32,000 nt of DNA from an uncultured Chloroflexia bacterium (GTDB lineage Bacteria; Chloroflexota; Anaerolineae; Anaerolineales; Anaerolineaceae), in NCBI GenBank assembly GCA_963704755.1, contig OY969938.1, positions 3,120,001 to 3,152,000 of the forward strand. The letters are read 5' to 3'. Under the pieces are notes generated by a model. That model did not search any database, was not told the DNA's origin, and worked only from the letters and a program-made list of their open reading frames with translations. Below are positions 3,910-15,110 of this stretch, piece after piece. Position 1 is the first letter of the stretch. Each line of letters begins with the position of its first letter. Both the position numbers and the translations under genes were made by a program.

Positions 3910-3935
3910 CCATCGGGGCGGGGGGAGGAGAGGAA

Positions 3936-4009
3936 GTGTCAGGGACAAGTGTGGCGGAAAGTGAAACAGTGCTTCAGTGATTCGGTGGTTCAGTGGTTCA
4001 GTGAAGCAG
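3936..4009 (+). repeat. Solitary half-array of the CAGTGATTCGGTG / GTGTCAGG short-word repeat family
   Basis: The sequence is gtgtcagggacaagtgtggcggaaagtgaaacagtgcttcagtgattcggtggttcagtggttcagtgaagcag. It uses the same words as the arms at 9110-9423 and 11232-11442. I saw no inverted partner nearby. Confidence 0.6.
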
Positions 4010-4036
4010 TTTTCCCCATTGGGTTGAGCGGTTATT

Positions 4037-4963
4037 TCAATTTTTATCTTGCCAACCGGCCCCGGCTTTCCAATACAGATTAAATTTTGCTCCCGAAACC
4101 AACGATTTAAATGGTGGCATCAGAAATCTTACCAATCTTTGGATTACATAACTAAAGTCTTTTTCCGGCCCTGATTCAATTCTATTTCTTACGATTATGG
4201 TCCGTTCCCATTCCCTTTTGTTTTCATTGGCAAATTCAGCCGTCAATGCATTCGGGAAACCATCAGGGTAATCAGTTTGTCTCTTTCGAAAAGTAGCTTG
4301 AATTGCTTGCTGAAGGAGCAGGCCATCAAAGTCAAAGTGTTCGGAGAGCAACCATATGTCATAGAAATCCTTAAACCTGCTGTTTGCTTCGCCTTTCCAA
4401 ACAATCGTGTGCGCTTTTTCGGCAACCACAGTTACAGGCGGATACCCAAACAATGTGGGCGGAGGCAAATTTTCCAAATAACAGGGATAATCTATAGGAA
4501 TGGCGCCTGGTGTGATCGTATCCGTGAAGCCGATATCGACCTGGATGGGGATCTTTGACCTTCCCAGAAAGCCGATTAAATTTACCCTTATGCCATCATA
4601 TTCGGCGTTCACTTGAGTCAGATCAATGGACAAAGTTGTTGGATTAAATAACAATCCATCTTCCGGATAGTTTTGTAAACAAATTTCGCGAAAAATTTTT
4701 TCGATGTTCTCCACCGTGTTTTGTGTGTACCCACGGAAATCAATATCCTTTGTCAGGCGGCGTGAAGGGAGATCCCACGCATTAAGGATAAGACCACCTT
4801 TTAATATGAATATTTTGGCGTACTGGGTTAAAGATAAGCGAAACAAGAATCGTTCCATAGCATAATATTGGAGTACCGTTTGAAAATCAAGATCGCGCTG
4901 CCTGGCAATATTTTTCAACCGGTCATGTACAGATACAACCACATTTTGGACGTCTTTTTTCAT
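4037..4963 (-). CDS. abiEii: AbiEii/AbiGii-family nucleotidyltransferase toxin (type IV toxin-antitoxin / abortive infection)
   Basis: 308-aa ORF. The N-terminus VHDRLKNIARQRDLDFQTVLQYYAMERFLFRLS and the NTase-like block LKGGLILNAW..RLTKDIDF are typical of DUF1814/AbiEii. It overlaps the upstream antitoxin gene by 4 nt (ATGA) and has an AT-rich composition unlike its neighbours. Confidence 0.8.
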   Translation of the reverse strand: MKKDVQNVVVSVHDRLKNIARQRDLDFQTVLQYYAMERFLFRLSLTQYAKIFILKGGLILNAWDLPSRRLTKDIDFRGYTQNTVENIEKIFREICLQNYPEDGLLFNPTTLSIDLTQVNAEYDGIRVNLIGFLGRSKIPIQVDIGFTDTITPGAIPIDYPCYLENLPPPTLFGYPPVTVVAEKAHTIVWKGEANSRFKDFYDIWLLSEHFDFDGLLLQQAIQATFRKRQTDYPDGFPNALTAEFANENKREWERTIIVRNRIESGPEKDFSYVIQRLVRFLMPPFKSLVSGAKFNLYWKAGAGWQDKN

Positions 4964-5583
4964 GAAACGATGGTCCTGATATACGGCTTTATAACCTCTT
5001 CCACCCGATCAATACGTGCATATTCAAAAATTTTGTCCATCCGTGGTTTCGGCTGGCGGACATAATCTTTCAAGGCCTCGATAGCTGTATCCAGGCCAAT
5101 GCGATTACGGAATTTAAAGCAATCTGCAATTGTTTTTTCGCGGTCGTAGATCCGAACAGGAATCTCATCGACGAGATATTCCTCAATCCCAGCGATATAT
5201 GCTTCCTTTGACAACCAATAAATATCCAGCGTGGGGTATTCGAGAGGAGGCGTTTGGACATTCCCGGGCAGTGAAATATAAACTTTGTCCGGTACCTGGG
5301 TGGTCAAGTTATGAAAATATAGAGCCGAAAGGGAACAAATGACCGCCTTTGGAACAAGCAGACTTACTTGTACAACATCCAGATTTCCCAAAGGTTCACC
5401 GCTCGCCAGCCGGTACAATCCTCTTTGCTCTTTTTCCAATATCCCTTTTGCATACATTTGATATATAGCAAATTTCGGGATCCCAAGTTTTATTGCCCGA
5501 TCTAGTTTCAAAATCCCGTGTTCGTCTTTGAAAATTTTTATAAAGGGTTCATACTTGTCAATTCTTGAATCCGTTTCGTTCAT
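4960..5583 (-). CDS. abiEi: AbiEi-family antitoxin / transcriptional regulator
   Basis: 207-aa ORF directly upstream of abiEii and overlapping it. It has an N-terminal winged-helix-like block, LDRAIKLGIPKFAIYQMYAKGILEKEQRGLYRL. Size and position match AbiEi. Confidence 0.7.
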   Translation of the reverse strand: MNETDSRIDKYEPFIKIFKDEHGILKLDRAIKLGIPKFAIYQMYAKGILEKEQRGLYRLASGEPLGNLDVVQVSLLVPKAVICSLSALYFHNLTTQVPDKVYISLPGNVQTPPLEYPTLDIYWLSKEAYIAGIEEYLVDEIPVRIYDREKTIADCFKFRNRIGLDTAIEALKDYVRQPKPRMDKIFEYARIDRVEEVIKPYIRTIVS

Positions 5584-5590
5584 AAAAACA

Positions 5591-5644
5591 ATTATACAAC
5601 TAATCCTAGGTACATTTTATAAAATACCTAGGATTAGTTATATA
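5591..5644 (-). promoter_or_regulatory. Putative abiE promoter (TATAAT 7 nt from the ATG) overlapping a 20-bp-arm inverted repeat (candidate AbiEi operator)
   Basis: Plus-strand attata at 5591-5596 is TATAAT on the minus strand, followed by tgttttt and then the ATG. The inverted repeat is tatacaactaatcctaggta (5593-5612), a 12-nt spacer, then tacctaggattagttatata (5625-5644). There is one mismatch, and the inner 14 bp are perfect. Confidence 0.5.
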
Positions 5645-5787
5645 AGTTGTAATCAACTATAAGCTAAAGACAATCTATGCGAATGTTCCCGTCTCACTTT
5701 TTTTTGAATCGAATGTTCTAATGATTTTTAAATTATGCCATTCCATTAAAGGCGATGGGCGGTCTCATCGATGTAGTTTCCTGTATT

Positions 5788-6642
5788 CTACAGATATGAA
5801 TCGCCCGCATGCAAAGTAATCACCGTAATCTCCGGCCGGCAGTTGAAGCGGATCGGCGGCGGGATGGTGCCGACGCCGCGGGTAGTGTATTGAATCATGT
5901 TCTCTACCTGGTAAGCCCCTACCGGGTATTTCCGGCCAAAGCGCGGCAGGATCAGCGGGCCGACCAGGGGTAAAGACACCTGCCCGCCGTGGGAGTGGCC
6001 GGAAAGCTGCAAGTCGAACCGGCCGGTGGCTGCGCTGACGTCGGCGTAGTCGGGTTCGTGGGCCAGCAATATGGCGGCCCCGTCGTCAGGCAGTTGGGCG
6101 AGCACGCTGGGCAGGCGGTCTTTGTGCTCAAAAAAGTCATCCACCCCGGCAATATGCAGGCGGGCGCCGTCACGCTGCAAGGTGAACACGGTGTTGCTCA
6201 AATCGATCAGGCCGCTTTGGGCAATAATTCTGCGGACGTGAGCCGAGCCATCCCAATGGTCGTGATTGCCCAGAATAGCCACGCCGGCGTCCGCCGGAGC
6301 AAGGCCGCTGAGCGGTGCCGTCAGGTCGCTGTCCGGCACAGTCACGTTGCGGGTAATGAAATCGCCGGTGATGGCCACCAGGTCCGGCTGCTGCGCGTTG
6401 ACAAGATCCACGATGCGGGCCAACTGTTCGGCGGTCATGCCCGTGCCCATGTGAATGTCGCTAAAGTGGACCAGCTTGTAGCCCTCGAAGGCCGGGGACA
6501 AATGCGGCAGGGTAAAATCCACCGGGTTGACGTCCAGCCAGTCGGGTTCGATTTCGCCCACGTAAGTGAACCCGCCCACCCCCAAAGCCAGCGCCCCCAA
6601 CGAAGCCAGGCCAATCTGCAGGAATTTTCGTCGTGAAATCAT
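5788..6642 (-). CDS. Calcineurin-like metallophosphoesterase with a twin-arginine (Tat) signal peptide
   Basis: Motifs FSDIHMG, GDFITR, GNHDHW and GHSHGGQ are present. The N-terminus MISRRKFLQIGLASLGALA is Tat-like. I prefer the ATG at 6642 over the track start at 6675, because the extension would cover a TATAAT box (6649-6654). Confidence 0.8.
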   Translation of the reverse strand: MISRRKFLQIGLASLGALALGVGGFTYVGEIEPDWLDVNPVDFTLPHLSPAFEGYKLVHFSDIHMGTGMTAEQLARIVDLVNAQQPDLVAITGDFITRNVTVPDSDLTAPLSGLAPADAGVAILGNHDHWDGSAHVRRIIAQSGLIDLSNTVFTLQRDGARLHIAGVDDFFEHKDRLPSVLAQLPDDGAAILLAHEPDYADVSAATGRFDLQLSGHSHGGQVSLPLVGPLILPRFGRKYPVGAYQVENMIQYTTRGVGTIPPPIRFNCRPEITVITLHAGDSYL

Positions 6643-6734
6643 GAGGGAATTATAGTACAGGGAGCAAGGGGGCATTATCCTGGTCTTTCCCTTGTTTACG
6701 GCGGGTAGTTAGAAACTGGACGGACCAAATAGAC

Positions 6735-6770
6735 AATTGCCTATTTTAATAATTATTAAAATAGGCAATT
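6735..6770. repeat. Perfect 36-bp AT-rich palindrome in the divergent spacer
   Basis: The sequence aattgcctattttaataattattaaaataggcaatt equals its own reverse complement. It lies about 95 bp upstream of the phosphoesterase ATG and about 100 bp upstream of the small plus-strand ORFs. Confidence 0.9.
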
Positions 6771-6916
6771 CTATTAAATGACAGGTATCCTCTTCGGACA
6801 CTTTTATTGTCAATTATAAACTTAGCTAGGGTTACTAAATTGCTCTATAATGGATTAATGATAGGGGAAATTATGACAAATAAGCCCCCGAAACAAAACG
6901 TTCGAGGAGGGTTAAA

Positions 6917-7225
6917 ATGAACGATCCGGGTTTGGACAATGTTTATAAGCGGCTAGAGGATAAAAAGATCGATGCTCTAACAATCGAGGACCTTCGTACA
7001 TTAGGCGCTTATCTTACTGCAGTTAAAAAATTCGAGGCCGCTACGTTGGTGAAATCTTATGCGGAAAAGCTGGCTAAAGCGGTCAATGAAGTCGAGGATT
7101 TGCGTCAGCAGGCTTTTCGTACTGGATTGATAGGCTTATTCGCTGCAGCAGAAAAAGCTGCGTCACATGACGTGGAGCAAGACGCCATTGATCGGGCACT
7201 TGATAAAGTAACATATGTTCCATGA
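6917..7225 (+). CDS. Hypothetical 102-aa all-helical protein (orphan, AT-rich islet)
   Basis: A strong SD (GAGGAGG) precedes the ATG. I recognised no family. A 15-codon ORF (6873-6920) ends in an ATGA overlap with its start. Confidence 0.5.
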   Translation: MNDPGLDNVYKRLEDKKIDALTIEDLRTLGAYLTAVKKFEAATLVKSYAEKLAKAVNEVEDLRQQAFRTGLIGLFAAAEKAASHDVEQDAIDRALDKVTYVP

Positions 7226-7475
7226 CCATTTTTGGTAATAATTTGCCGAGAAAACCGTTCTGTACACCTTCAACTCAAGTATGTCGGACCAACTCCTACT
7301 AGCACTTATAAAGCCCAATACCCTACCATAAGAAAATAAACCTTTTCATACAAAAATGACGGCTTTATGAAATCTTAGAGCGTTCAATGGCATGACAATT
7401 TTGATACTGCCAGCTGATACATTACATGAGCGAAGTACCAGAAGAGAGATGTTATGGTTTTAGGTTAGGAAAAGT

Positions 7476-7622
7476 ATGAATAGGACACTTCGTTCGATCA
7501 AAAGACACGGAAGGCGTGAGGCAATGAGGCCAATTGTAAATGGTCTCCCAAAAATTGGGTGTCTGGAGTTTATTTTGATTGCCGCACTTATCTTTTTAAT
7601 TCTCCTTCAATTTTCCAAATGA
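7476..7622 (+). CDS. Possible 48-aa small membrane peptide (basic N-terminus, one hydrophobic helix)
   Basis: It is below the 60-aa track cutoff. The start context is AGGAAAAGT-ATG. The product is MNRTLRSIKRHGRREAMRPIVNGLPKIGCLEFILIAALIFLILLQFSK. There is no homology evidence. Confidence 0.25.
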   Translation: MNRTLRSIKRHGRREAMRPIVNGLPKIGCLEFILIAALIFLILLQFSK

Positions 7623-7864
7623 TTTAAAGCTCATGTATTGCATATTTTGCGGCTGTAAAGCATTGTTTTTCGTCTTGGCCACTAATTGGTGAGAGAAATC
7701 CACACCATTGATTTATATTTTTATATGGAAGGTTGTAATAGAATTCTCGATTTATAATAAATTCTGATAGTGTAAAAAGCACTTCAATTCTATGTAAAAG
7801 CCATTTGTGTAATATTGGGCAATGTCTTCTGAAATCTTTTAATTCTTACCCCTCTAATATCCCT

Positions 7865-9112
7865 ATGCTCATCCATTCTGCCTCCCAACTCCTTACCTTG
7901 TCCGGCGGCCCGCAGCGCGGACGCGACCTGGGCCGCCTCAACATCATCGAAGACGGCGCAGTGCTGGTGCGCGGCGAGACGATCCAGGCGGTCGGCCCAA
8001 GCCGCGACCTGCTGGCGGCTTACCCGGACGAGGAGCGCTTCGACGCGGCCGGCCGGGTGGTGATGCCCGGGCTGATCGACCCGCACACTCACCTGATCTG
8101 GGCCGGCGACCGCGCCAAAGAGTTCGAAATGCGCCTGGAGGGCAAAACCTACCAGGAGATTTCCACCGCAGGCGGCGGGATCCGCGCGACGGTCGCGGCC
8201 ACCCGCGCCGCCGGCGTGGAAGAATTGAAAGCCCAGGCCCGCCCGCGCCTGCAATCCATGCTGGCCCACGGCACCACCACAGCCGAGGCCAAGAGCGGCT
8301 ACGCCTTGCAGCATCCCGGCGAGCTGACCCAGCTCCAGGCCATCCTGGAGCTGGACGACGAGGGTCCGCTCGAGCTGGCGCCGACCTACCTGGGCGCGCA
8401 CGACATCGCCCCCGAATATAAAGATAACCCGGACGCCTATGCCGACCTGTTGTGCAGCCGCTACCTGCCCGAAGTGCGGGTCTGGTGGCAAGCTCATGCC
8501 CACGGCCGGCCGCTGCCCTTCGTGGACGTGTTCTGCGAGTCGATCGCCTTCAACCTGGCCCAGTCCCGCCGGATTCTGGAAACGGCTCAAAGTTTGGGCT
8601 TCCCGCTCAAAATCCACGCCGACGAGTTCGATAACCTGGGCGGAGCCGCCCTGGCGGCGGCCCTGGGCGCGGCCTCGGCCGATCACCTGGTCAAGACCTC
8701 GGCCGAGGACATCCGCGCCCTGGCCGCCGGTGATACGGTGGCCGTCTCACTGCCCTGCACGCCTTTTGGCCTGGCCCAGGCCCACTTCACCCCCGCCCGC
8801 GAGATCCTGGCCGCCGGCGGCCTGCTGGCCATCGCCACCGACCTCAACCCCGGCACAGCCTGGTGCGAGAGCATGCAGTTCGCCATAGCCCTGGCCTGCC
8901 GCTACCTCAAGCTGACCCCGGCCGAGGCCATCGCCGCCGCCACGATCAACGCCGCCGCCGCCATCCGCCGCGCCGGCCGCATCGGTTCGCTGGAGCCCGG
9001 CAAACAGGCCGACCTGTTGGTCCTCTCGGTCAGCGACTATCGTCACCTGGGGTACCGGTTCGGAGGGAATGTCGTCCGAAATGTAATCAAAAAGGGGAAG
9101 GTGAGGGAGTAA
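7865..9112 (+). CDS. hutI: Imidazolonepropionase
   Basis: The blocks PGLIDPHTHLIWAGDRAKEFEMRLEGKTYQEI, GGGI, KIHADE, ADHL and ATDLNPG fit the HutI amidohydrolase pattern. I prefer the ATG at 7865, where GC content rises, over the track start at 7805. Confidence 0.9.
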   Translation: MLIHSASQLLTLSGGPQRGRDLGRLNIIEDGAVLVRGETIQAVGPSRDLLAAYPDEERFDAAGRVVMPGLIDPHTHLIWAGDRAKEFEMRLEGKTYQEISTAGGGIRATVAATRAAGVEELKAQARPRLQSMLAHGTTTAEAKSGYALQHPGELTQLQAILELDDEGPLELAPTYLGAHDIAPEYKDNPDAYADLLCSRYLPEVRVWWQAHAHGRPLPFVDVFCESIAFNLAQSRRILETAQSLGFPLKIHADEFDNLGGAALAAALGAASADHLVKTSAEDIRALAAGDTVAVSLPCTPFGLAQAHFTPAREILAAGGLLAIATDLNPGTAWCESMQFAIALACRYLKLTPAEAIAAATINAAAAIRRAGRIGSLEPGKQADLLVLSVSDYRHLGYRFGGNVVRNVIKKGKVRE

Positions 9113-9423
9113 TTCAGTAATTCGGTGATTCAGTAATTCAGTGATTCGGTGTTTCGGTGTTTCGATGTTTCAGTGTCGAGTGTCAAGTGTCAGGTGTCAG
9201 ACGGTGTTTCGGTTATACAGTGATTCGGTGTTTCAGTATCAGGTCTCAAGTGGCCTGGCACAACGCCGGTGTTACGGAGTCAAGTTTCACGTGTAAAACG
9301 GTGTTTCGGTTATACGGTGATTCGGTGTTTCAGTATCAGGTCTCAAGTGGCCTGGCACAACGGCGATGTTACGGTGTCAAGTGTCACGTGTGAAACGGTG
9401 TTTCGGTCATTCAGTGATTCGGT
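9110..9423 (+). repeat. Left arm: tandem degenerate octamers (TRWTTCRR) and heptamers (TGTCRAG), then longer combinations of the same words
   Basis: Eight octamers run from 9110 to 9173 (taattcag taattcgg tgattcag taattcag tgattcgg tgtttcgg tgtttcga tgtttcag). Heptamers follow at 9174-9201 (tgtcgag tgtcaag tgtcagg tgtcaga). The rest reuses the same words. The array begins on the hutI stop codon. Confidence 0.9.
9201..9423 (+). repeat. 97-bp tandem repeat, about 2.3 copies
   Basis: Units start at 9201, 9298 and 9395. Copies 1 and 2 differ at 6 of 97 positions by my alignment. Confidence 0.9.
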
Positions 9424-9576
9424 TCCGCCTGCCTGTAGATAACGATTTAGATTTGACGTATTGTCGTGGTGAAATAAGCGCCAGGGGGTAATGGCGTGTT
9501 ATTATATTGCAGCTAATTCAATCCTTGCGGTTACATGTGTTACCGGTCAAACGCCGGTAAGTCGTTCGGCATTGAA

Positions 9577-9887
9577 GCACTGAATTACTCTACCACCCAA
9601 ACATTGCCTCCACCTGACTCCTTCCCCCGAGTCACCGAAACACCGTCCCATACCTGACACTTGACACTCGACACCTAAAAATCGAAACACCATAACACTG
9701 AATTACTAAAGCACCCCTGACACTTGACACTGAGTCACAGAATCACTGAATCACCGAAACACCGTACGACACTTGACCCTTGACACTCAACATCGAATCA
9801 CCGTAACACTGAATCACTGCAACACTGCAACACCCCCCTGACACTGAGTCACCGAATCACTGAAATACTGAAATACTGAATCACCGA
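9577..9887 (-). repeat. Right arm: the same word family as 9110-9423 in reverse complement
   Basis: The words are caccgaaacaccg, cctgacacttgacactcgacac, gaatcactgaatcaccgaaacaccg and ctgaaatactgaaatactgaatcaccga. The outer end pairs with 9118-9151. It ends at the SD/ATG of the HD gene. Confidence 0.85.
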
Positions 9888-9895
9888 GGTACCTC

Positions 9896-10531
9896 ATGCC
9901 CACCCTTAAATCGGTAAAACCCTATTACCCCTCCAGCGACCACGTCCACGGGTTCGACCACATCCAGCGCGTGTACGTGATGGCCGAGCGCCTGGCCGCG
10001 GCCGAAGGCGCCGACCTGGAAATCGTGCGGGCCGCGGCGCTGCTGCACGACGTGGAAGGCAGCCGCCCGGAGGGCGACGAACGCGCCAATCATCACAAGC
10101 AGTCGGCCGAGATCGCCGGCGACATCCTGCGCGAGGAAGGCTGGCCGCAAGAGCGCATCGCCGCGGTGCAGCACTGCATCCGCGCCCATCGCTACCGCGA
10201 CAACCGCGAACCGCCGGCCACCATCGAGGCCAAAGTGCTGTTCGACGCCGACAAACTGGACGTGCTGGGCGCCATCGGAGTGGTGCGCGTGCTGGGCTAC
10301 GCCCAACAGGCCGGCCAGCCGGTCTACAGCCCGCCTTCCGAAAAGTTTCTGAACACCGGCATCGAAGAGCCCGGCGAGCCGCACAGCGCCTATCACGAGC
10401 ACCTCTTCAAGCTGCGTAAGGTCAAGGAGCGCCTGTTCACCACCGAGGCGCGCAAGATCGCCGAAAGCCGGCACGCCTATCTGGACGAATTCTTCACCCG
10501 CCTGCTGGCCGAAATGAAAGGCCAGGCGTAA
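9896..10531 (+). CDS. HD-domain metal-dependent phosphohydrolase
   Basis: 211-aa ORF with the H..HD..D pattern (HGFDHIQRV, AALLHDV, HCIRAH, FDADKLD). GAGG lies 6 nt upstream of the ATG. Confidence 0.85.
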   Translation: MPTLKSVKPYYPSSDHVHGFDHIQRVYVMAERLAAAEGADLEIVRAAALLHDVEGSRPEGDERANHHKQSAEIAGDILREEGWPQERIAAVQHCIRAHRYRDNREPPATIEAKVLFDADKLDVLGAIGVVRVLGYAQQAGQPVYSPPSEKFLNTGIEEPGEPHSAYHEHLFKLRKVKERLFTTEARKIAESRHAYLDEFFTRLLAEMKGQA

Positions 10532-10610: not shown

Positions 10611-11234
10611 ATGACCATTCCCAGCGGGCCAATCCTGGTTGTCGAAGATAACGCCAACGTGCGCGAGTTGATCGACGTAACCCTGCGTTTCAAGGGCTAC
10701 CCGGTCGTCACGGCCACCAACGGGCAGGAGGCCCTGGACCTGATCGCCCAGGAAAAGCCGGCCTTGATCATCACCGACATCCTCATGCCCAAAATGGACG
10801 GCTATTCGCTGGCCCACGCTCTGCGCAAAGACCCGGCCACCCGCCAGATCCCGCTGATTTTTATCTCGGCTACCTACCTGACCCCCGAGGACAAGAACTT
10901 TGCCCTCAGCCTGGGCGCGGTGCGTTTTGTCGAAAAGCCGATTGATACGGCCGATTTTCTGCTGACCGTGGCCGAGGTGTTGACCGAGGGCATTGGCGGG
11001 CAATTCCGCCCGCTGGACGATTTGAACTTTTACGAAGGCTACCGCACCCGCCTGGAAAACAAACTGCATCACAAGCAGGTCCAGGTGACTCGCACCGAGC
11101 GCCTGTTGAGCGCCCTGCCCGAGGCGCAGAAACCGGCTTTCGAGACCCTGCTCGCGCGGGTCATCGCCGAGCGCGACGAGATCCAGACCGAGTTGGACCA
11201 GCTCATCGTGATCCTCAATGAACTGAGACAGTAA
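10611..11234 (+). CDS. Stand-alone response-regulator receiver protein with a helical C-terminal tail
   Basis: It carries REC motifs (ILVVEDN, IITDILMPKMDG, PLIFISA, K in VEKP). I recognised no DNA-binding output domain. Confidence 0.85.
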   Translation: MTIPSGPILVVEDNANVRELIDVTLRFKGYPVVTATNGQEALDLIAQEKPALIITDILMPKMDGYSLAHALRKDPATRQIPLIFISATYLTPEDKNFALSLGAVRFVEKPIDTADFLLTVAEVLTEGIGGQFRPLDDLNFYEGYRTRLENKLHHKQVQVTRTERLLSALPEAQKPAFETLLARVIAERDEIQTELDQLIVILNELRQ

Positions 11235-11442
11235 TCCAGTGTTTCAGTGATTCGGTGAGGCAGTGTCAGGTGTCAAGTTTTGGGGGCGAGCAGTGGTTCA
11301 GTGATACAGTTTTTCAGTGATCCGGTTCCTCGTGTCGCGTGTCAAGTGTCAGGGAACGGGTGGTGATACGGTTTTTTAGTGTCATGGTTCGAGTGTCTGA
11401 TGGGGGACAAGGGATTTTAGTGTTCCGGTAACTCGGTGACAG
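11232..11442 (+). repeat. Left arm of the second inverted short-word array
   Basis: The words are cagtgtttcagtgattcggtgaggcagtgtcaggtgtcaag, cagtggttcagtgatacag and cgtgtcaagtgtcaggg. The arm starts on the stop codon of the receiver gene. Confidence 0.8.
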
Positions 11443-11719
11443 GCTTAAAGTAGCATGTCTTTCTGATAAAAGGGTTGTCATTGCGAACCCTGGCCGTTTT
11501 TTGCCCAAGGGGCATGCTGCGCACCAGGGTATGGCAATCTCAACGCCGGTGTTGCAATGCTTCAGTGCTTCAGTCGCCTTTCATATCCAGGAAATTCACT
11601 ATTTGGCCGGCTACGCCTCTCAACTCCCCTCGCCCCTTTAGGGATTGGAACGGAGCCTATTCCTCCCCTGTATCCTTAGCTACCCCCCGGCTTAGAAAGC
11701 CGGGCTACATCTATAAGGC

Positions 11720-11874
11720 GTAGGTTGGGTGCGGGCTAAAAAATGGCGCTGGTCGAGAGGTATGACGTGCATCGGCACAGGTGTTGCCCACACCCAACGT
11801 CCCGGCGAAAGATGTTGGGTTGAGCTTGGCCTCGGTTGATGGGAGTATTGGTAAAACCGCTCAACCCAACCTAC
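11720..11874. repeat. Cluster of GTAGGTTGGGT / ACCCAACCTAC-type inverted repeats
   Basis: gttgggttgagc (11814-11825) pairs perfectly with gctcaacccaac (11859-11870). gtaggttgggtg (11720-11731) pairs with cacccaac (11791-11798) and with acccaacctac (11864-11874). Confidence 0.7.
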
Positions 11875-11889
11875 ATGGGGCATCTAATT

Positions 11890-12003
11890 TTGTCATTGCG
11901 AGAAGGCGTTTTTTGCCGACGAAGCAATCTCAGCCTGAGCAGGCTGTCACAATGGCCAGCGTAGAGATTGCCACGGCCCAACAAACGGGCCTCGCAGTGA
12001 CAA
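11890..12003. repeat. Three-tier nested hairpin element
   Basis: Outer tier: ttgtcattgcgag (11890-11902) with ctcgcagtgacaa (11991-12003), one mismatch. Middle tier: gcaatctc (11924-11931) with gagattgc (11964-11971). Inner tier: the palindrome agcctgagcaggct (11932-11945). Confidence 0.75.
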
Positions 12004-12038
12004 CCCTTTTCTTGAGAAAGCCATGTACTCTCGCTCCC

Positions 12039-12186
12039 CGACACTTGACAAATAGCGCTTGGCACTGTTCCACCGAATCACTGAATTACTGAAACACTGA
12101 ACCACTGCCGCCCCACCCCTGACACTTGACACATGACACAAAGAACTGAAAAACCGAATCACCGAAAAACGGAAACACCGAGTCAC
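12039..12186 (-). repeat. Right arm of the second inverted short-word array (reverse-complement words)
   Basis: The words are cgacacttgaca, ccaccgaatcactgaattactgaaacactgaaccactg, cctgacacttgacacatgacac and aaccgaatcaccgaaaaacggaaacaccgagtcac. The arm abuts the histidine kinase stop. Confidence 0.8.
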
Positions 12187-12191
12187 TCCCC

Positions 12192-13427
12192 TCACCCACT
12201 CTGGTTAATAGGTAACACCGCATAAATCGCCGTGCCCTGGCCGGCAGGGCTCTCGGCGTAGATCTCGCCGCCGTGAGCCTGCACCAGGCTCTTGGAAATG
12301 GCCAATCCCAGCCCCGAGCCGCTCGAATTGGCCGACTTGTAAAACCGGTCGAAAATATGCGGCAGGTCCTCGCCAGGGATGCCGCTGCCCGTATCGGTCA
12401 CACTGAACTTGATCTCCTCCGGGTTGGAGGGGTTCAAAGCACACCCCACGCAGATTTTCCCGCCGGGCGGGGTGTAACGCAGGGCGTTATTCACCAGGTT
12501 GCCCAACACCTCGTGAATGCGCACCGGGTCGCATTCCAGCGCCGGCAGGCCGGCAGCCGTATTCGCAACCAGGCTGACCTCCCTGGTGTTGGCCTGCACC
12601 TTGAACGAATCGACCACCTCGACCACGATCCCGGCCGGGTCGGCCTGCTCGAGCTGGAGCTTCAGCGAGCCGCTCTCCGCCAGAGAGAGCGTACGCAGGT
12701 CGTCGATGATGCGCGAAAGGGTGTGCGTCTCGTCCAGAACCGCTTGCAGCATGTGCGGGTCAGCCGCATAGATCCCATCCAGCATACCTTCCAGGTCCCC
12801 CTGGATCACCGTCAGCGGGGTGCGCAGCTCATGGGTGACGTCGGCCAGCATCTGGCGGCGCTGCTGGTTGTTGATATCCAGGCGATTGGCCAGTGAATTG
12901 ATCGCCCGGGCCAGGGCGCGGTCCTCCGGCTGGCCTCTTTCGTTGATGCGCACCGAGTAATCCCCACCGGCCAGTTTGCTGATGGCGTCCATCGTATCAT
13001 CTACCTGGGTGGCGGTAGAGCGCAGGTTGCGGCCCGATTGGAGCACGGCAAATAATCCACCCAGCAACAAAATCGCCAGGCCGGCTTTGATCAGGGGTGG
13101 AGGACCGCTGGCAGCCCGGCCAAGGAAAGCCGATGAGGAAATCCAAGACAGCAGGAGCGCCGTCATTCCGCTGGCCAGCAGCAGCAAGAAAAATAGAAAA
13201 CAGCCCACCCGGCGATAGATATGCCCGCGCATCCTCCGCCACTTACGCGGATCGGGCCGGTAGGCCGGCGGCCAGGGCTCCCCCTCCGGCCACCAGGGAG
13301 GCGATGAGTGCACCCAGGAAGAAGAATGGTGAAAATTAGGCTGGTGGCGCTCAGGATCGTGTCCGTGCGCACGCCTGTTTTCCGTCCAGCGGTTATGGGA
13401 TTTGCGTGGATCGAAGCCTGGCTTCAT
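12192..13427 (-). CDS. Sensor histidine kinase (two closely spaced TM helices, HAMP-like linker, HisKA, HATPase_c) with a His/Trp/Pro-rich N-terminal tail
   Basis: The H-box is ADVTHELRTPLTVIQG, the N-box is LGNLVNNALRYTP, and the G-boxes are DTGSGIP and GSGLGLAIS. The ATG lies 5 nt after the RR stop. Confidence 0.85.
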   Translation of the reverse strand: MKPGFDPRKSHNRWTENRRAHGHDPERHQPNFHHSSSWVHSSPPWWPEGEPWPPAYRPDPRKWRRMRGHIYRRVGCFLFFLLLLASGMTALLLSWISSSAFLGRAASGPPPLIKAGLAILLLGGLFAVLQSGRNLRSTATQVDDTMDAISKLAGGDYSVRINERGQPEDRALARAINSLANRLDINNQQRRQMLADVTHELRTPLTVIQGDLEGMLDGIYAADPHMLQAVLDETHTLSRIIDDLRTLSLAESGSLKLQLEQADPAGIVVEVVDSFKVQANTREVSLVANTAAGLPALECDPVRIHEVLGNLVNNALRYTPPGGKICVGCALNPSNPEEIKFSVTDTGSGIPGEDLPHIFDRFYKSANSSGSGLGLAISKSLVQAHGGEIYAESPAGQGTAIYAVLPINQSG

Positions 13428-14113: not shown

Positions 14114-14122
14114 TTTAGAAAA

Positions 14123-14131
14123 AGTATAGCA
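14123..14131 (-). promoter_or_regulatory. Extended -10 (TGcTATACT) 9 nt upstream of the RR ATG
   Basis: The minus strand reads aaTGcTATACTttttctaaaATG. There is no clear -35. Confidence 0.35.
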
Positions 14132-14143
14132 TTATTGGCGGTT

Positions 14144-14241
14144 GGCTGTTAGCTAAAAGCTGTTAGCGGTTAGCTATTAGCTGTTGGCTTTTAGCTTTTA
14201 GCTTTTAGCCTTTAGCTTTTAGCCTTTAGCAGTTAGCCGCT
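14144..14241 (+). repeat. 14 head-to-tail degenerate heptamers (AGCNNTT / TTAGC core)
   Basis: ggctgtt agctaaa agctgtt agcggtt agctatt agctgtt ggctttt agctttt agctttt agccttt agctttt agccttt agcagtt agccgct. Confidence 0.9.
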
Positions 14242-14336
14242 GATCAGTCGTATATTTATACGAAACAGGTTTGTAACCTCCAAGGGCTGAATGCAGGTAG
14301 TTTACCAAGAATTCGATTCTCCCCGGTAGGCAATTT

Positions 14337-14356
14337 GGGCGCACTGTCGTGCGCCC
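14337..14356. other. GC-rich stem-loop in the unique core (8-bp stem, 4-nt loop)
   Basis: The sequence is gggcgcac tgtc gtgcgccc. No U-tract follows on either strand, so it is not a canonical intrinsic terminator. Confidence 0.6.
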
Positions 14357-14398
14357 ATCTAAGGTGTTTCACTTCATCGCAGTCGCTGATCGCCAGGA

Positions 14399-14470
14399 GC
14401 TACCAGCTAACAGCTAACTGCTAAAAGCTAATCGCTAACCGCTAATGGCTAACCGCTAAAGGCTAACCGC
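14399..14470 (-). repeat. About 10 head-to-tail heptamers GCTAANN, the reverse-complement word of the 14144-14241 array
   Basis: gctacca gctaaca gctaact gctaaaa gctaatc gctaacc gctaatg gctaacc gctaaag gctaacc. The array ends on the stop codon of the 14470-14934 gene. Confidence 0.9.
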
Positions 14471-14934
14471 TATTTGCCCGCACCCTCTTCGGGGGCCTTG
14501 CCTTGCGGTTCCTCGTGCATCTTGCGATGCCACTGCTCGACGATCGGGGGGACCTGGTCGTGCTCAGGATCAAAGCCATACGGGCCGAAGCCACGCGGGC
14601 CATAACCCTGGTGATGCATGCCCATGCCGCCGTAGTAACCTCTGTGCCAGGCGCCGGGGAAGAACAGGCGCCGGATCCCGCCAATGATCAGGAACAGGAA
14701 AAAGAGGCCGATCAAGAAGCCAAAGGGGAAGAACCCAAAGCCCCAACCCCACGGGTGGAAGAGATAGCCCGGGTGGACGTACGGGGCAGTCATCCCAGGC
14801 GTAGTGATGGTAACGTTGCCGTTAGCGGCCAAACCGTTCGCCACTCCCTGGTTATAAACTACCACGCCCAGGCCGGCCAGCAAACCGACCACAATCAGCG
14901 TAAATAAGATACTAAGAAAAATTCTACCTTTCAT
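14470..14934 (-). CDS. Hypothetical membrane protein with a Gly/Phe/Trp-rich segment and a His/Met/Gly/Tyr-rich tail
   Basis: 154-aa ORF with GAGGAG SD upstream. It has an N-terminal TM helix, then HPWGWGFGFFPFGFLIGLFFLFLII, then WHRGYYGGMGMHHQGYGPRGFGPYGF. I recognised no family. Confidence 0.6.
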   Translation of the reverse strand: MKGRIFLSILFTLIVVGLLAGLGVVVYNQGVANGLAANGNVTITTPGMTAPYVHPGYLFHPWGWGFGFFPFGFLIGLFFLFLIIGGIRRLFFPGAWHRGYYGGMGMHHQGYGPRGFGPYGFDPEHDQVPPIVEQWHRKMHEEPQGKAPEEGAGK

Positions 14935-15077
14935 CGTTACTCCTCATTATTGATTTCCCGCACCGGAGATTTTCTCCGGCCCAGGATGTCCGTCAATCCA
15001 TAATTGATCATGCTGTTATTATCCATAAGGATTGTGTACCAATTATGAAGAGAAGATGGAAGGATTGTGGAGGGAGG

Positions 15078-15110
15078 CAGTTCAGTGTTACGGTGTTGCA
15101 GTGATTTAGT
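15078..15110 (+). repeat. Solitary short half-array of the CAGTG-word family
   Basis: cagttcagtgttacggtgttgcagtgatttagt lies directly after the permease stop. Confidence 0.5.

Follow-up and report, generated by a model that had tools for sequence, protein, structure and literature searches.

We analysed a stretch of 32,000 nucleotides (the window; positions 3,120,001 to 3,152,000 of contig OY969938.1) from an uncultured member of the Anaerolineae (Chloroflexota), and focused on the spacer between hutI and a downstream HD-domain gene, which is occupied by a long palindrome of tandem 7- and 8-nt words, hereafter element 1. The hutI gene (7805-9112, + strand) encodes an imidazolonepropionase-type amidohydrolase (Pfam Amidohydro_1/3, HUTI_composite_bact); the TTG at 7805 is its first possible start and the true start may be later. 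The C-terminus of its product aligns with that of relatives and has the same length. The HD-domain phosphohydrolase gene (9896-10531, + strand) was assigned from Pfam HD, homologues and synteny, and the nearest relatives of its product belong to Anaerolineae, e.g. Bellilinea caldifistulae (76-78% identical).

The palindrome between hutI and the HD gene

The spacer from the hutI stop to the HD start measures 783 nt and is filled by an array insert of about 780 bp. A preliminary description of this stretch had proposed a comparison of orthologous hutI-HD spacers. These are 21-28 bp long in four relatives (B. caldifistulae and three metagenomic ones), which identifies the 780 bp, on this comparison, as a lineage-specific insert into a tight gene pair.

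Element 1 is composed of two arms and a core. The left arm (9108-9423), delimited using Tandem Repeats Finder (TRF), a repeat finder, word counts and GC skew, is G/T-rich with more G than C (skew +0.24 to +0.31). It opens with a run of octamers YRGTRWTT (9108-9176, period 8 by TRF), passes into heptamers GTGTCRR (9172-9199, period 7 by TRF) and carries a higher-order unit of 97 bp repeated 2.5 times (9182-9423, 91% matches by TRF), the units being 91-92% identical to each other. The core, i.e. the loop (9424-9576), is a unique sequence of 153 bp with a small GC hairpin at 9478-9497 followed by T-rich sequence. The right arm (9577-9887) is C/A-rich with more C than G (skew -0.38 to -0.50) and holds reverse complements of the left-arm words, in arrays of period 7, 8 and 16 at 9655-9887 and in a 119-bp unit present twice at 9632-9864 (both by TRF). 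Each arm comprises two to three tandem copies of a module of 80-120 nt, made of an octamer run, a heptamer run and ACGGTGTTTCGG. On the left, the element is bounded by the hutI stop codon TAA (9110-9112), which is part of the first octamer AGTAATTC; on the right, it stops about 10 nt 5' of the HD ATG (9896), just before the GAGG at 9886-9889.

Counts of YRGTRWTT, GTGTCRR and their complements (GT-type/CA-type) were 19/0 in the left arm, 0/0 in the core and 0/19 in the right arm; the right third does contain the vocabulary of the left third as reverse complements only, as had been stated. Over the whole window, word density was 4-5 per kb in non-coding versus 0.24-0.32 per kb in coding sequence, i.e. 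a 15-20-fold intergenic enrichment. Intergenic location and orientation, the latter absolute in the arms, were checked within the window, and both agree with what the preliminary description expected of a dedicated element. The open reading frames (ORFs) within the arms (51-78 aa) had no Pfam match, and the core contained no ORF, no Rfam match and no remnant of S23p, a protein discussed below; it also had no significant copy elsewhere in the 32-kb window. Rfam searches (gathering threshold and E<=1) together with a tRNA search returned nothing relevant, and Rfam detected no rRNA in the window. A CRISPR array was considered and rejected, since the 7-8-nt words stand head-to-tail without spacers, in contrast to the 24-40-nt repeats and unique spacers of CRISPR. 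The earlier account of a palindrome of tandem 7- and 8-mers filling this spacer, with no credible ORF and with a unique core of about 150 bp, was thereby confirmed in every particular by TRF, inverted repeats and word counts.

The repeat finder returned 56 inverted pairs within element 1, the best of which span 110 nt at 79% (9139-9248 with 9718-9827) and 77 nt at 86% (9137-9213 with 9634-9710). The outer ends, previously reported to pair nearly in register at 9118-9151 and 9850-9887, were paired at 79% over 9109-9168 and 9841-9892. Simple nesting of the arms does not apply, since the best partner of the outermost module on the left is the innermost one on the right. Folding was compared with dinucleotide-shuffled controls, as had been suggested, and proved far better than the shuffles on the + strand (-345.6 kcal/mol vs -228 +/- 8, z -14.5) as well as on the - strand (-334.7 kcal/mol, z -13.7). 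With about 200 long-range pairs predicted on either strand, element 1 has complementary termini enclosing the insert, as in the stems of rRNA intervening sequences (IVS). The base of the predicted stem sets the hutI TAA beside the HD Shine-Dalgarno sequence GAGG and the ATG.

Further elements in the window and the question of transposition

A recurrence of the layout, earlier placed at 11232-12186 and 14137-14472, was found as element 2 (11229-12186) and element 3 (14133-14472), both of which fold with z -9.7 (tested on 11220-12200 and 14115-14480, respectively). The left arm of element 2 (11229-11440) is of G/T type, uses the same octamers and heptamers as element 1 (nine GT-type and no CA-type words) and begins at the stop of a response-regulator gene (10611-11234). 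Its right arm (12040-12186), of C/A type (no GT-type and seven CA-type words), abuts the stop of a convergent histidine-kinase gene (12192-13427, - strand). Between them lies a core (11441-12039) whose ORFs had no Pfam match and into whose non-array sequence the inverted symmetry continues (11449-11486 with 11992-12029, 85%). Element 3, located between two minus-strand genes, has a left arm (14133-14237) of GTTAGCT/TTTAGCT heptamers, a core (14238-14397) and a right arm (14398-14472) with AGCTAAC. In all three elements, the arms are built of tandem 7-8-nt words, and the G-rich arm precedes the C-rich one. Two further arrays stand singly, namely a G/T-type module of heptamers then octamers at 3930-4005, which has no partner arm, and a short G/T-type octamer run at 15075-15108, beside the stop of a CitMHS transporter gene. 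Tandem, intergenic and dispersed arrays of period 7/8 are present at five spacers in 32 kb.

Gene borders recur at the ends of these elements. G/T-type arms begin at stop codons in four of six adjacent cases, and the first octamer, RGTRATTC, includes the stop codon (TAA or TGA) of the upstream gene in the window (9110-9112) and in two metagenomic loci (L281 1347-1349; L264 12355-12357; L numbers designate the loci that we examined). At the other end of these three elements, the C-rich arm stops a few nt short of the following start. Because of their period of 8, the arrays contain stop codons in every reading frame of either strand.

The core of element 2 also contains REP-like (repetitive extragenic palindromic) GTCATTGCGA...GCAATCTC hairpins at 11470-11545 and 11890-12030. 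Similar repeats form long tandem arrays of 84-94 bp in B. caldifistulae (L120 1073-1758 and 8040-8635). These REP-like hairpin repeats are a second, unrelated repeat family of these Anaerolineae.

The arms are 79-86% complementary within a locus, and arms of different loci are about 71% alike. This likeness, together with the discrete insert seen against relatives and the symmetry of element 2 beyond its arrays, would suit a non-autonomous DNA transposon of the foldback or MITE (miniature inverted-repeat transposable element) type, in which the inverted repeats would be subterminal site arrays for a transposase encoded elsewhere. Eukaryotic Foldback transposons have long inverted arms of short tandem repeats, variable in length, around loops that are unrelated or absent, and the window elements likewise combine inverted short-repeat arms with unrelated loops. 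However, Foldback transposons are eukaryotic, depend on a transposase and make target-site duplications, and none of these features is established for the window elements. No target-site duplication was observed at 9108/9887 (flanks GGGAGTAA and GAGGTACCTC), and no transposase was found in the window or beside the cassettes examined below, except for unrelated insertion sequence elements. MITE copies are alike over their full sequence and carry target-site duplications, whereas the three elements, compared over 32 kb of genome, have cores that share nothing and no whole-length similarity, and their arm lengths and words differ. PF05635, the family introduced in the next section, is without known transposase activity. 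With MITEs and with the REP, BIME and REPIN families, the window elements share the character of dispersed intergenic hairpin-forming repeats combining as mosaics; REPs, however, are single imperfect palindromes of 20-40 nt tied to RAYT transposases, whereas the window arms are tandem words. Taking both sides together, we judge a transposon of this kind quite unlikely.

S23p cassettes, arm order and regulatory or mutational alternatives

PF05635 is the family of S23p, the 23S rRNA intervening-sequence or 'four helix bundle' protein, which is related to Avd of diversity-generating retroelements. Metagenome contigs were scanned for three consecutive CRGTGWTT octamers, which gave 120 loci from many GC backgrounds; most of them had single arrays and a minority had paired arms. 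In L281, rfbB is followed by a G/T arm starting from its stop codon, an ORF of 116 aa and a C/A arm ending 3 nt before the rfbA ATG, and the ORF encodes a PF05635 23S_rRNA_IVP protein (E 1e-34). In L264, the arms surround a DinB_2 gene. A profile search of the fetched loci identified five PF05635 ORFs, each between a G-rich and a C-rich arm (two in L281, one each in L206, L231 and L260), whereas control loci (879 kb) and viral loci (395 kb) yielded none. The association with S23p, overlooked in the preliminary description, is the most informative clue that we obtained, and it was met again on plasmids and in rfb operons.

A tblastn search with the L281 protein retrieved 32 plasmid records, mostly from Nostocales, and 16 loci were read regardless of repeats. 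Significant inverted arms of period 7 or 8 were present at ten of them (alignment z 4.8-18.6 versus shuffles) and weak complementary flanks at three more. At every detectable case, GC skew gave G>C in the upstream arm and C>G in the downstream arm. The arm words vary (GTAGGGA, AGTCAGGA, GGGCAGGA, GGTTTAAG, GAGGAGATAA, AAGGGAA, GGTGACAG), and the cassettes sit within operons, i.e. nrdA/nrdB, cas10/cmr3, cas6/cas4 (twice) and a parA/parB-like pair. One locus, L295 from Azospirillum lipoferum, is a true 23S rRNA IVS (helix 45) with arms of tandem GAGGACGGA-type words, the G-rich arm first. Cassettes and gene-less hairpins coexist: in L260, a single S23p cassette is accompanied, within 6 kb, by two gene-less hairpins that use its words, and in the Pseudanabaena plasmid L301 a gene-less GTTAGCT/AGCTAAA hairpin, built of the words of window element 3, lies beside an S23p gene. 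A protein search for S23p homologues found the nearest named ones in Burkholderiales and other Proteobacteria and led to rfb contigs, where all four cassettes examined (rfbB-S23p-rfbA, with or without a following S23p-rfbC) had G-first arms of GTGATTNN / CCATCACY words. These GTGATT-type words belong to the same word family as the window octamers.

Several observations concern the cassettes themselves. The one at the rfbB-rfbA junction, sometimes accompanied by a second at rfbA-rfbC, is kept across beta- and gammaproteobacterial contigs (L281, L303, L304, L305/L306), which suggests long-term retention or site-specific homing; in these rfb cassettes, gene callers absorb the G-rich arm into the reading frame of S23p or rfbA. 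CRISPR-cas operons with inserted PF05635 genes and tandem-word arms were found on plasmids of Picosynechococcus (L292), Anabaena sp. 90 (L294) and Pseudanabaena (L301), with one insertion between cas10 and cmr3 and two independent ones between cas6 and cas4. On the Nostoc edaphicum plasmid pNe_5 (L286), an S23p cassette flanked by (GTAGGGA)n and (TCCCTAC)n arms stands antisense between the ribonucleotide reductase alpha and beta genes, and S23p orientation thus does not depend on the host operon. Few further arrays were present in 50 kb of Nostoc punctiforme pNPUN02, so that gene-less hairpins are not frequent everywhere. A scan of the genome collection for the 15-mer TTCAGTGATTCGGTG gave 119 single chance matches and no arrays, and a degenerate four-octamer pattern matched, in viral contigs, mostly AT-rich simple repeats of giant viruses.

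The same loci bear on the idea that the arms are regulatory protein-binding arrays, similar to the TAACTGA repeats of Beggiatoaceae and to heptamer repeats of Nostoc. Their C/A-type words, TTGACA-like heptamers among them, would act from the promoter or 5' leader on transcription or translation of the downstream gene, and the G/T-type copy would serve as pairing partner or decoy. In the window, a C/A-type array lies on the coding strand 5' of all four adjacent starts (HD, PPDK_N, an OmpR-type regulator and ORF 14470-14934), and a -35/-10-like site is present in the right arm of element 1 (9654-9682). In relatives, NTGACAC heptamers, which contain TTGACA, lie just upstream of TACAAT boxes (L124 11733-11790; L123 3189-3300). 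Heptamer deletion has been reported to affect reporter expression (bioRxiv 10.1101/2022.06.06.494920), and repeats with an ACTGA core have been described upstream of starts (PMC4679880). The latter, TAACTGA intergenic direct repeats of Beggiatoaceae, Cyanobacteria and Bacteroidetes, have a patchy distribution that suggests horizontal spread (PMC4679880). They resemble the window words in the ACTGA core of their heptamers, the right arm having CACTGAAT and TACTGAAA just upstream of a start. They differ in forming short direct arrays of 2-6 copies, strongly oriented forward to starts and with 1 inverted case in 170 sets (PMC4679880), whereas the hallmark of the window is paired inverted arms, its word is not TAACTGA and no orientation rule emerged in the wider sample. 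A rule placing C/A-type words before start codons holds in the window but fails in the 120 metagenome loci, which are unbiased by crude gene calls (starts 25 vs 20, stops 30 vs 29). Neither arm of element 2 adjoins a start codon, and the words vary so widely between cassettes that a single conserved binding protein is unlikely. This regulatory reading seems to us very improbable. As to the relatives, a mere 7 nt separate the TACAAT box of L124 from the ATG, pointing to an mRNA that is leaderless or nearly so, and the heptamer word of the window arms may derive from a -35-like sequence.

Arm order is close to invariant. Among the array-type arm pairs read, about 35 were G-first and one was C-first, and the design of the window arms matches that of 10 plasmid, 5 metagenome and 4 proteobacterial S23p cassettes. 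A palindrome shows this order whichever of its strands is read, so that the order belongs to the element and does not reflect the direction of the flanking genes. The sole C-first palindrome (L175 295-1485) has arms of about 400 nt made of CACTGCAACA 10-mers and their complements, with a GC content of 0.48, and its contig may be eukaryotic. Three other apparent cases were dismissed: L260 resolved on re-reading into two neighbouring G-first hairpins, and L246 and L249 are not tandem-word arrays. Avoidance of Rho was considered as a cause of the G-first order. To our knowledge, cyanobacteria lack Rho, and they keep the rule, which weakens this idea. On a 2.1-kb metagenome contig (L253 726-2038), telomere-like arms, TTTAGGG-type on the left and CCCTAAA-type on the right, flank four copies of a repeat of about 200 nt, and every copy terminates in an array of the CACCGAAA type.

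This order also weighs on a purely mutational origin, in which spacer words would have expanded by replication slippage and an inverted copy would have arisen by template switching or foldback, leaving a functionless and tolerated by-product. The arrays are degenerate and include a recent higher-order duplication (the 97-bp units), the cores of the three elements are unrelated, no strand-specific G.U signal is seen and octamer arrays in metagenomes are mostly single. The ancestral hutI-HD spacer, moreover, terminates with CACCGGAG; this sequence is similar to the last C/A-type word and could have seeded growth in place. Slippage alone, however, predicts locus-specific words and random arm order. 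Against this, the same octamers and heptamers occur at at least four separate spacers in 32 kb and in other phyla, arm order is near-invariant, boundaries fall repeatedly at stop and start codons and the architecture is specifically tied to PF05635 genes. A by-product therefore appears unlikely to us, and the earlier claim of a dedicated, recurrent arm-core-arm element rather than random slippage gains from the recurrence of its words across spacers and phyla.

Relation to rRNA intervening sequences and STRR hairpins

RNase III cuts the stems of rRNA IVS, as documented in Coxiella, Leptospira and Salmonella; in the Coxiella 23S IVS, tandem GACAGAT heptamers occupy the 5' arm of the stem, and the enzyme cleaves at the first repeat (PMC4990558). 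rRNA IVS are regarded as selfish, their mobility not being established (PMC4990558). Like the window elements, 23S IVS are inserts with complementary ends and a long stem, their loop holding a PF05635 gene or nothing, and tandem-word arms occur in the Coxiella IVS as well as in the Azospirillum IVS L295. They differ in their location, since element 1 lies between hutI and HD and not in helix 9, 25 or 45 of 23S rRNA, and in arm size (about 30 nt in IVS vs about 310 nt with higher-order repeats in the window). The window elements are without S23p, an ORF that is itself present in only some IVS. RNase III cleavage, demonstrated for IVS, would apply to the window elements by analogy.

The second kin group consists of the short tandemly repeated repetitive (STRR) heptamers, which form hairpins between operon genes (hupS-hupL and others) in filamentous cyanobacteria; their function is not established, and an effect of the hupS-hupL hairpins on transcript stability or coupling has been proposed (PMC2670836). 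Scattered heptamer satellites are also known from Chloroflexus (PMC6749651). As in the window, STRR are tandem 7-nt words, intergenic and dispersed, and inverted sets form hairpins between genes of one operon. The window differs in its host (an Anaerolineae of the Chloroflexota and not a filamentous or heterocystous cyanobacterium), in mixing 8-mers with 7-mers, in its much larger size and its unique cores of 150-600 bp, and in its words, as YRGTRWTT, GTGTCRR and GTTAGCT are not canonical STRR words and HIP1 occurs only once in the window. No link to S23p was found in the STRR description.

The comparison with STRR drawn in the preliminary description was apt, as were its dedicated element and its hairpin. 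Its statement that it knew of no description of the arm-core-arm layout does not hold up, given the STRR hairpins between operon genes (PMC2670836) and the heptamer stem of the Coxiella IVS (PMC4990558). What is new in the window is the host phylum, the size of the elements and their modular octamer-plus-heptamer arms, and, most importantly, the general link of S23p genes with tandem-word arms and with a strict G-first order. This link was not found in the searchable literature, which leaves out older subscription papers, and may have been noted before.

We favour, with a confidence only somewhat better than even, the reading that the window elements are ORF-less, arm-expanded members of the stem-loop class of IVS and STRR hairpins, and that element 1 would be excised by RNase III from the hutI-HD transcript. 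A stem-loop element would have replaced the 21-28-bp intercistronic spacer of hutI-HD. In other bacteria the loop of this putative class carries a PF05635 gene, the three window members being gene-less, and the window arms would have grown by tandem duplication of the 80-120-nt module. In a hutI-HD co-transcript, pairing of the arms would produce an imperfect duplex, about 200 bp long, by which the hutI stop and the HD ribosome-binding site are brought together. RNase III may then cut this duplex, as it does rRNA IVS stems, and would thereby remove the insert and leave a structured 3' end on hutI and a separate HD mRNA. Such removal would account for the tolerance of 780 bp in a tight pair and for the presence of elements in rRNA and in essential operons. 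The RNase III-type processing suggested in the preliminary description matches the closest analogue studied by experiment, the rRNA IVS. The data show the anatomy, the insertion relative to relatives, the architecture, words and arm order held in common with S23p cassettes, and the coexistence of S23p-containing with gene-less hairpins; co-transcription of hutI and HD, RNase III cleavage and any role of S23p are what we infer.

Several findings weigh against this reading. The window spacers contained no S23p gene or remnant (hmmsearch --max, six-frame, E<=10, only noise), so that the link to S23p cassettes rests on architecture, arm order and word similarity. In length, the window arms exceed the arms flanking S23p genes 3-10-fold, and complementary arms were missing at 3 of the 16 plasmid S23p loci (L289, L297, L301). 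The cores of elements 1-3 are unrelated in sequence, and element 2, lying between convergent genes, is not directly open to excision from an operon transcript. Finally, the two strands of element 1 fold equally well and its G.U pairs show no bias toward the transcribed strand, which together leave no sequence sign of selection on one particular RNA. The palindrome is a DNA-level palindrome; of the long hairpin earlier pictured as joining the hutI stop to the HD start, the roughly 200 predicted pairs stand, and a signature of one RNA was not found.

A further reading is that of a large bidirectional terminator or 3'-end stabiliser, whose hairpin would halt or protect the transcripts of the flanking genes, HD being then transcribed from a promoter in the core or right arm. 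G/T-type arms begin at stops in four of six adjacent cases, both element 2 and L260:3780-3905 lie between convergent genes, the small GC hairpin of the element 1 core is associated with T-rich sequence on both strands, and STRR hairpins have been suggested to stabilise or terminate transcripts (PMC2670836). On the other hand, no U-tract follows the long stem, the core hairpin at 9478-9497 being the only, weak, terminator candidate, and promoter-like (7 vs 2.7) and terminator-like (10 vs 6.5) matches barely exceed the shuffled expectation. About 200 pairs and a loop of 150-600 nt go far beyond the needs of termination, and elements of this architecture are also found within rRNA and tight operons, in which a terminator would do harm. 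We consider this function highly improbable.

The favoured stem-loop reading may extend further. It is a possibility, to which we give somewhat less than an even chance, that STRR-like arrays, 23S IVS and the very abundant PF05635 genes form one widespread and unrecognised class of stem-loop elements in at least five phyla, with S23p, a relative of Avd, making, moving or maintaining the arms. Such elements would invade tight operons (nrdA/B, cas10/cmr3, cas6/cas4, rfbB/A/C, hutI/HD) and rRNA, always with the G-rich arm first, and their insertion would be neutralised at the RNA level; the Anaerolineae window would then contain giant gene-less derivatives. Three puzzles have stood apart for three decades, i.e. 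the origin and function of STRR-like repeats, the nature and spread of rRNA IVS and the role of thousands of S23p genes. The hutI-HD locus led to evidence of one architecture and one strict arm order common to the three, which makes these questions testable. For annotation, this accounts for spacers of hundreds of bp in otherwise tight operons of some genomes and warns that such spacers are inserts and not regulatory regions conserved by descent. If true, self-removal at the RNA level would amount to a compact natural means of placing cargo within operons without causing polarity.

Directly upstream of hutI, the window contains a low-GC island (4000-7800; GC 0.42-0.44 vs about 0.60 elsewhere). 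It carries genes for an AbiEii toxin (4037-4963), a weak AbiEi-like antitoxin (4960-5583) and a metallophosphoesterase, and was probably acquired horizontally.

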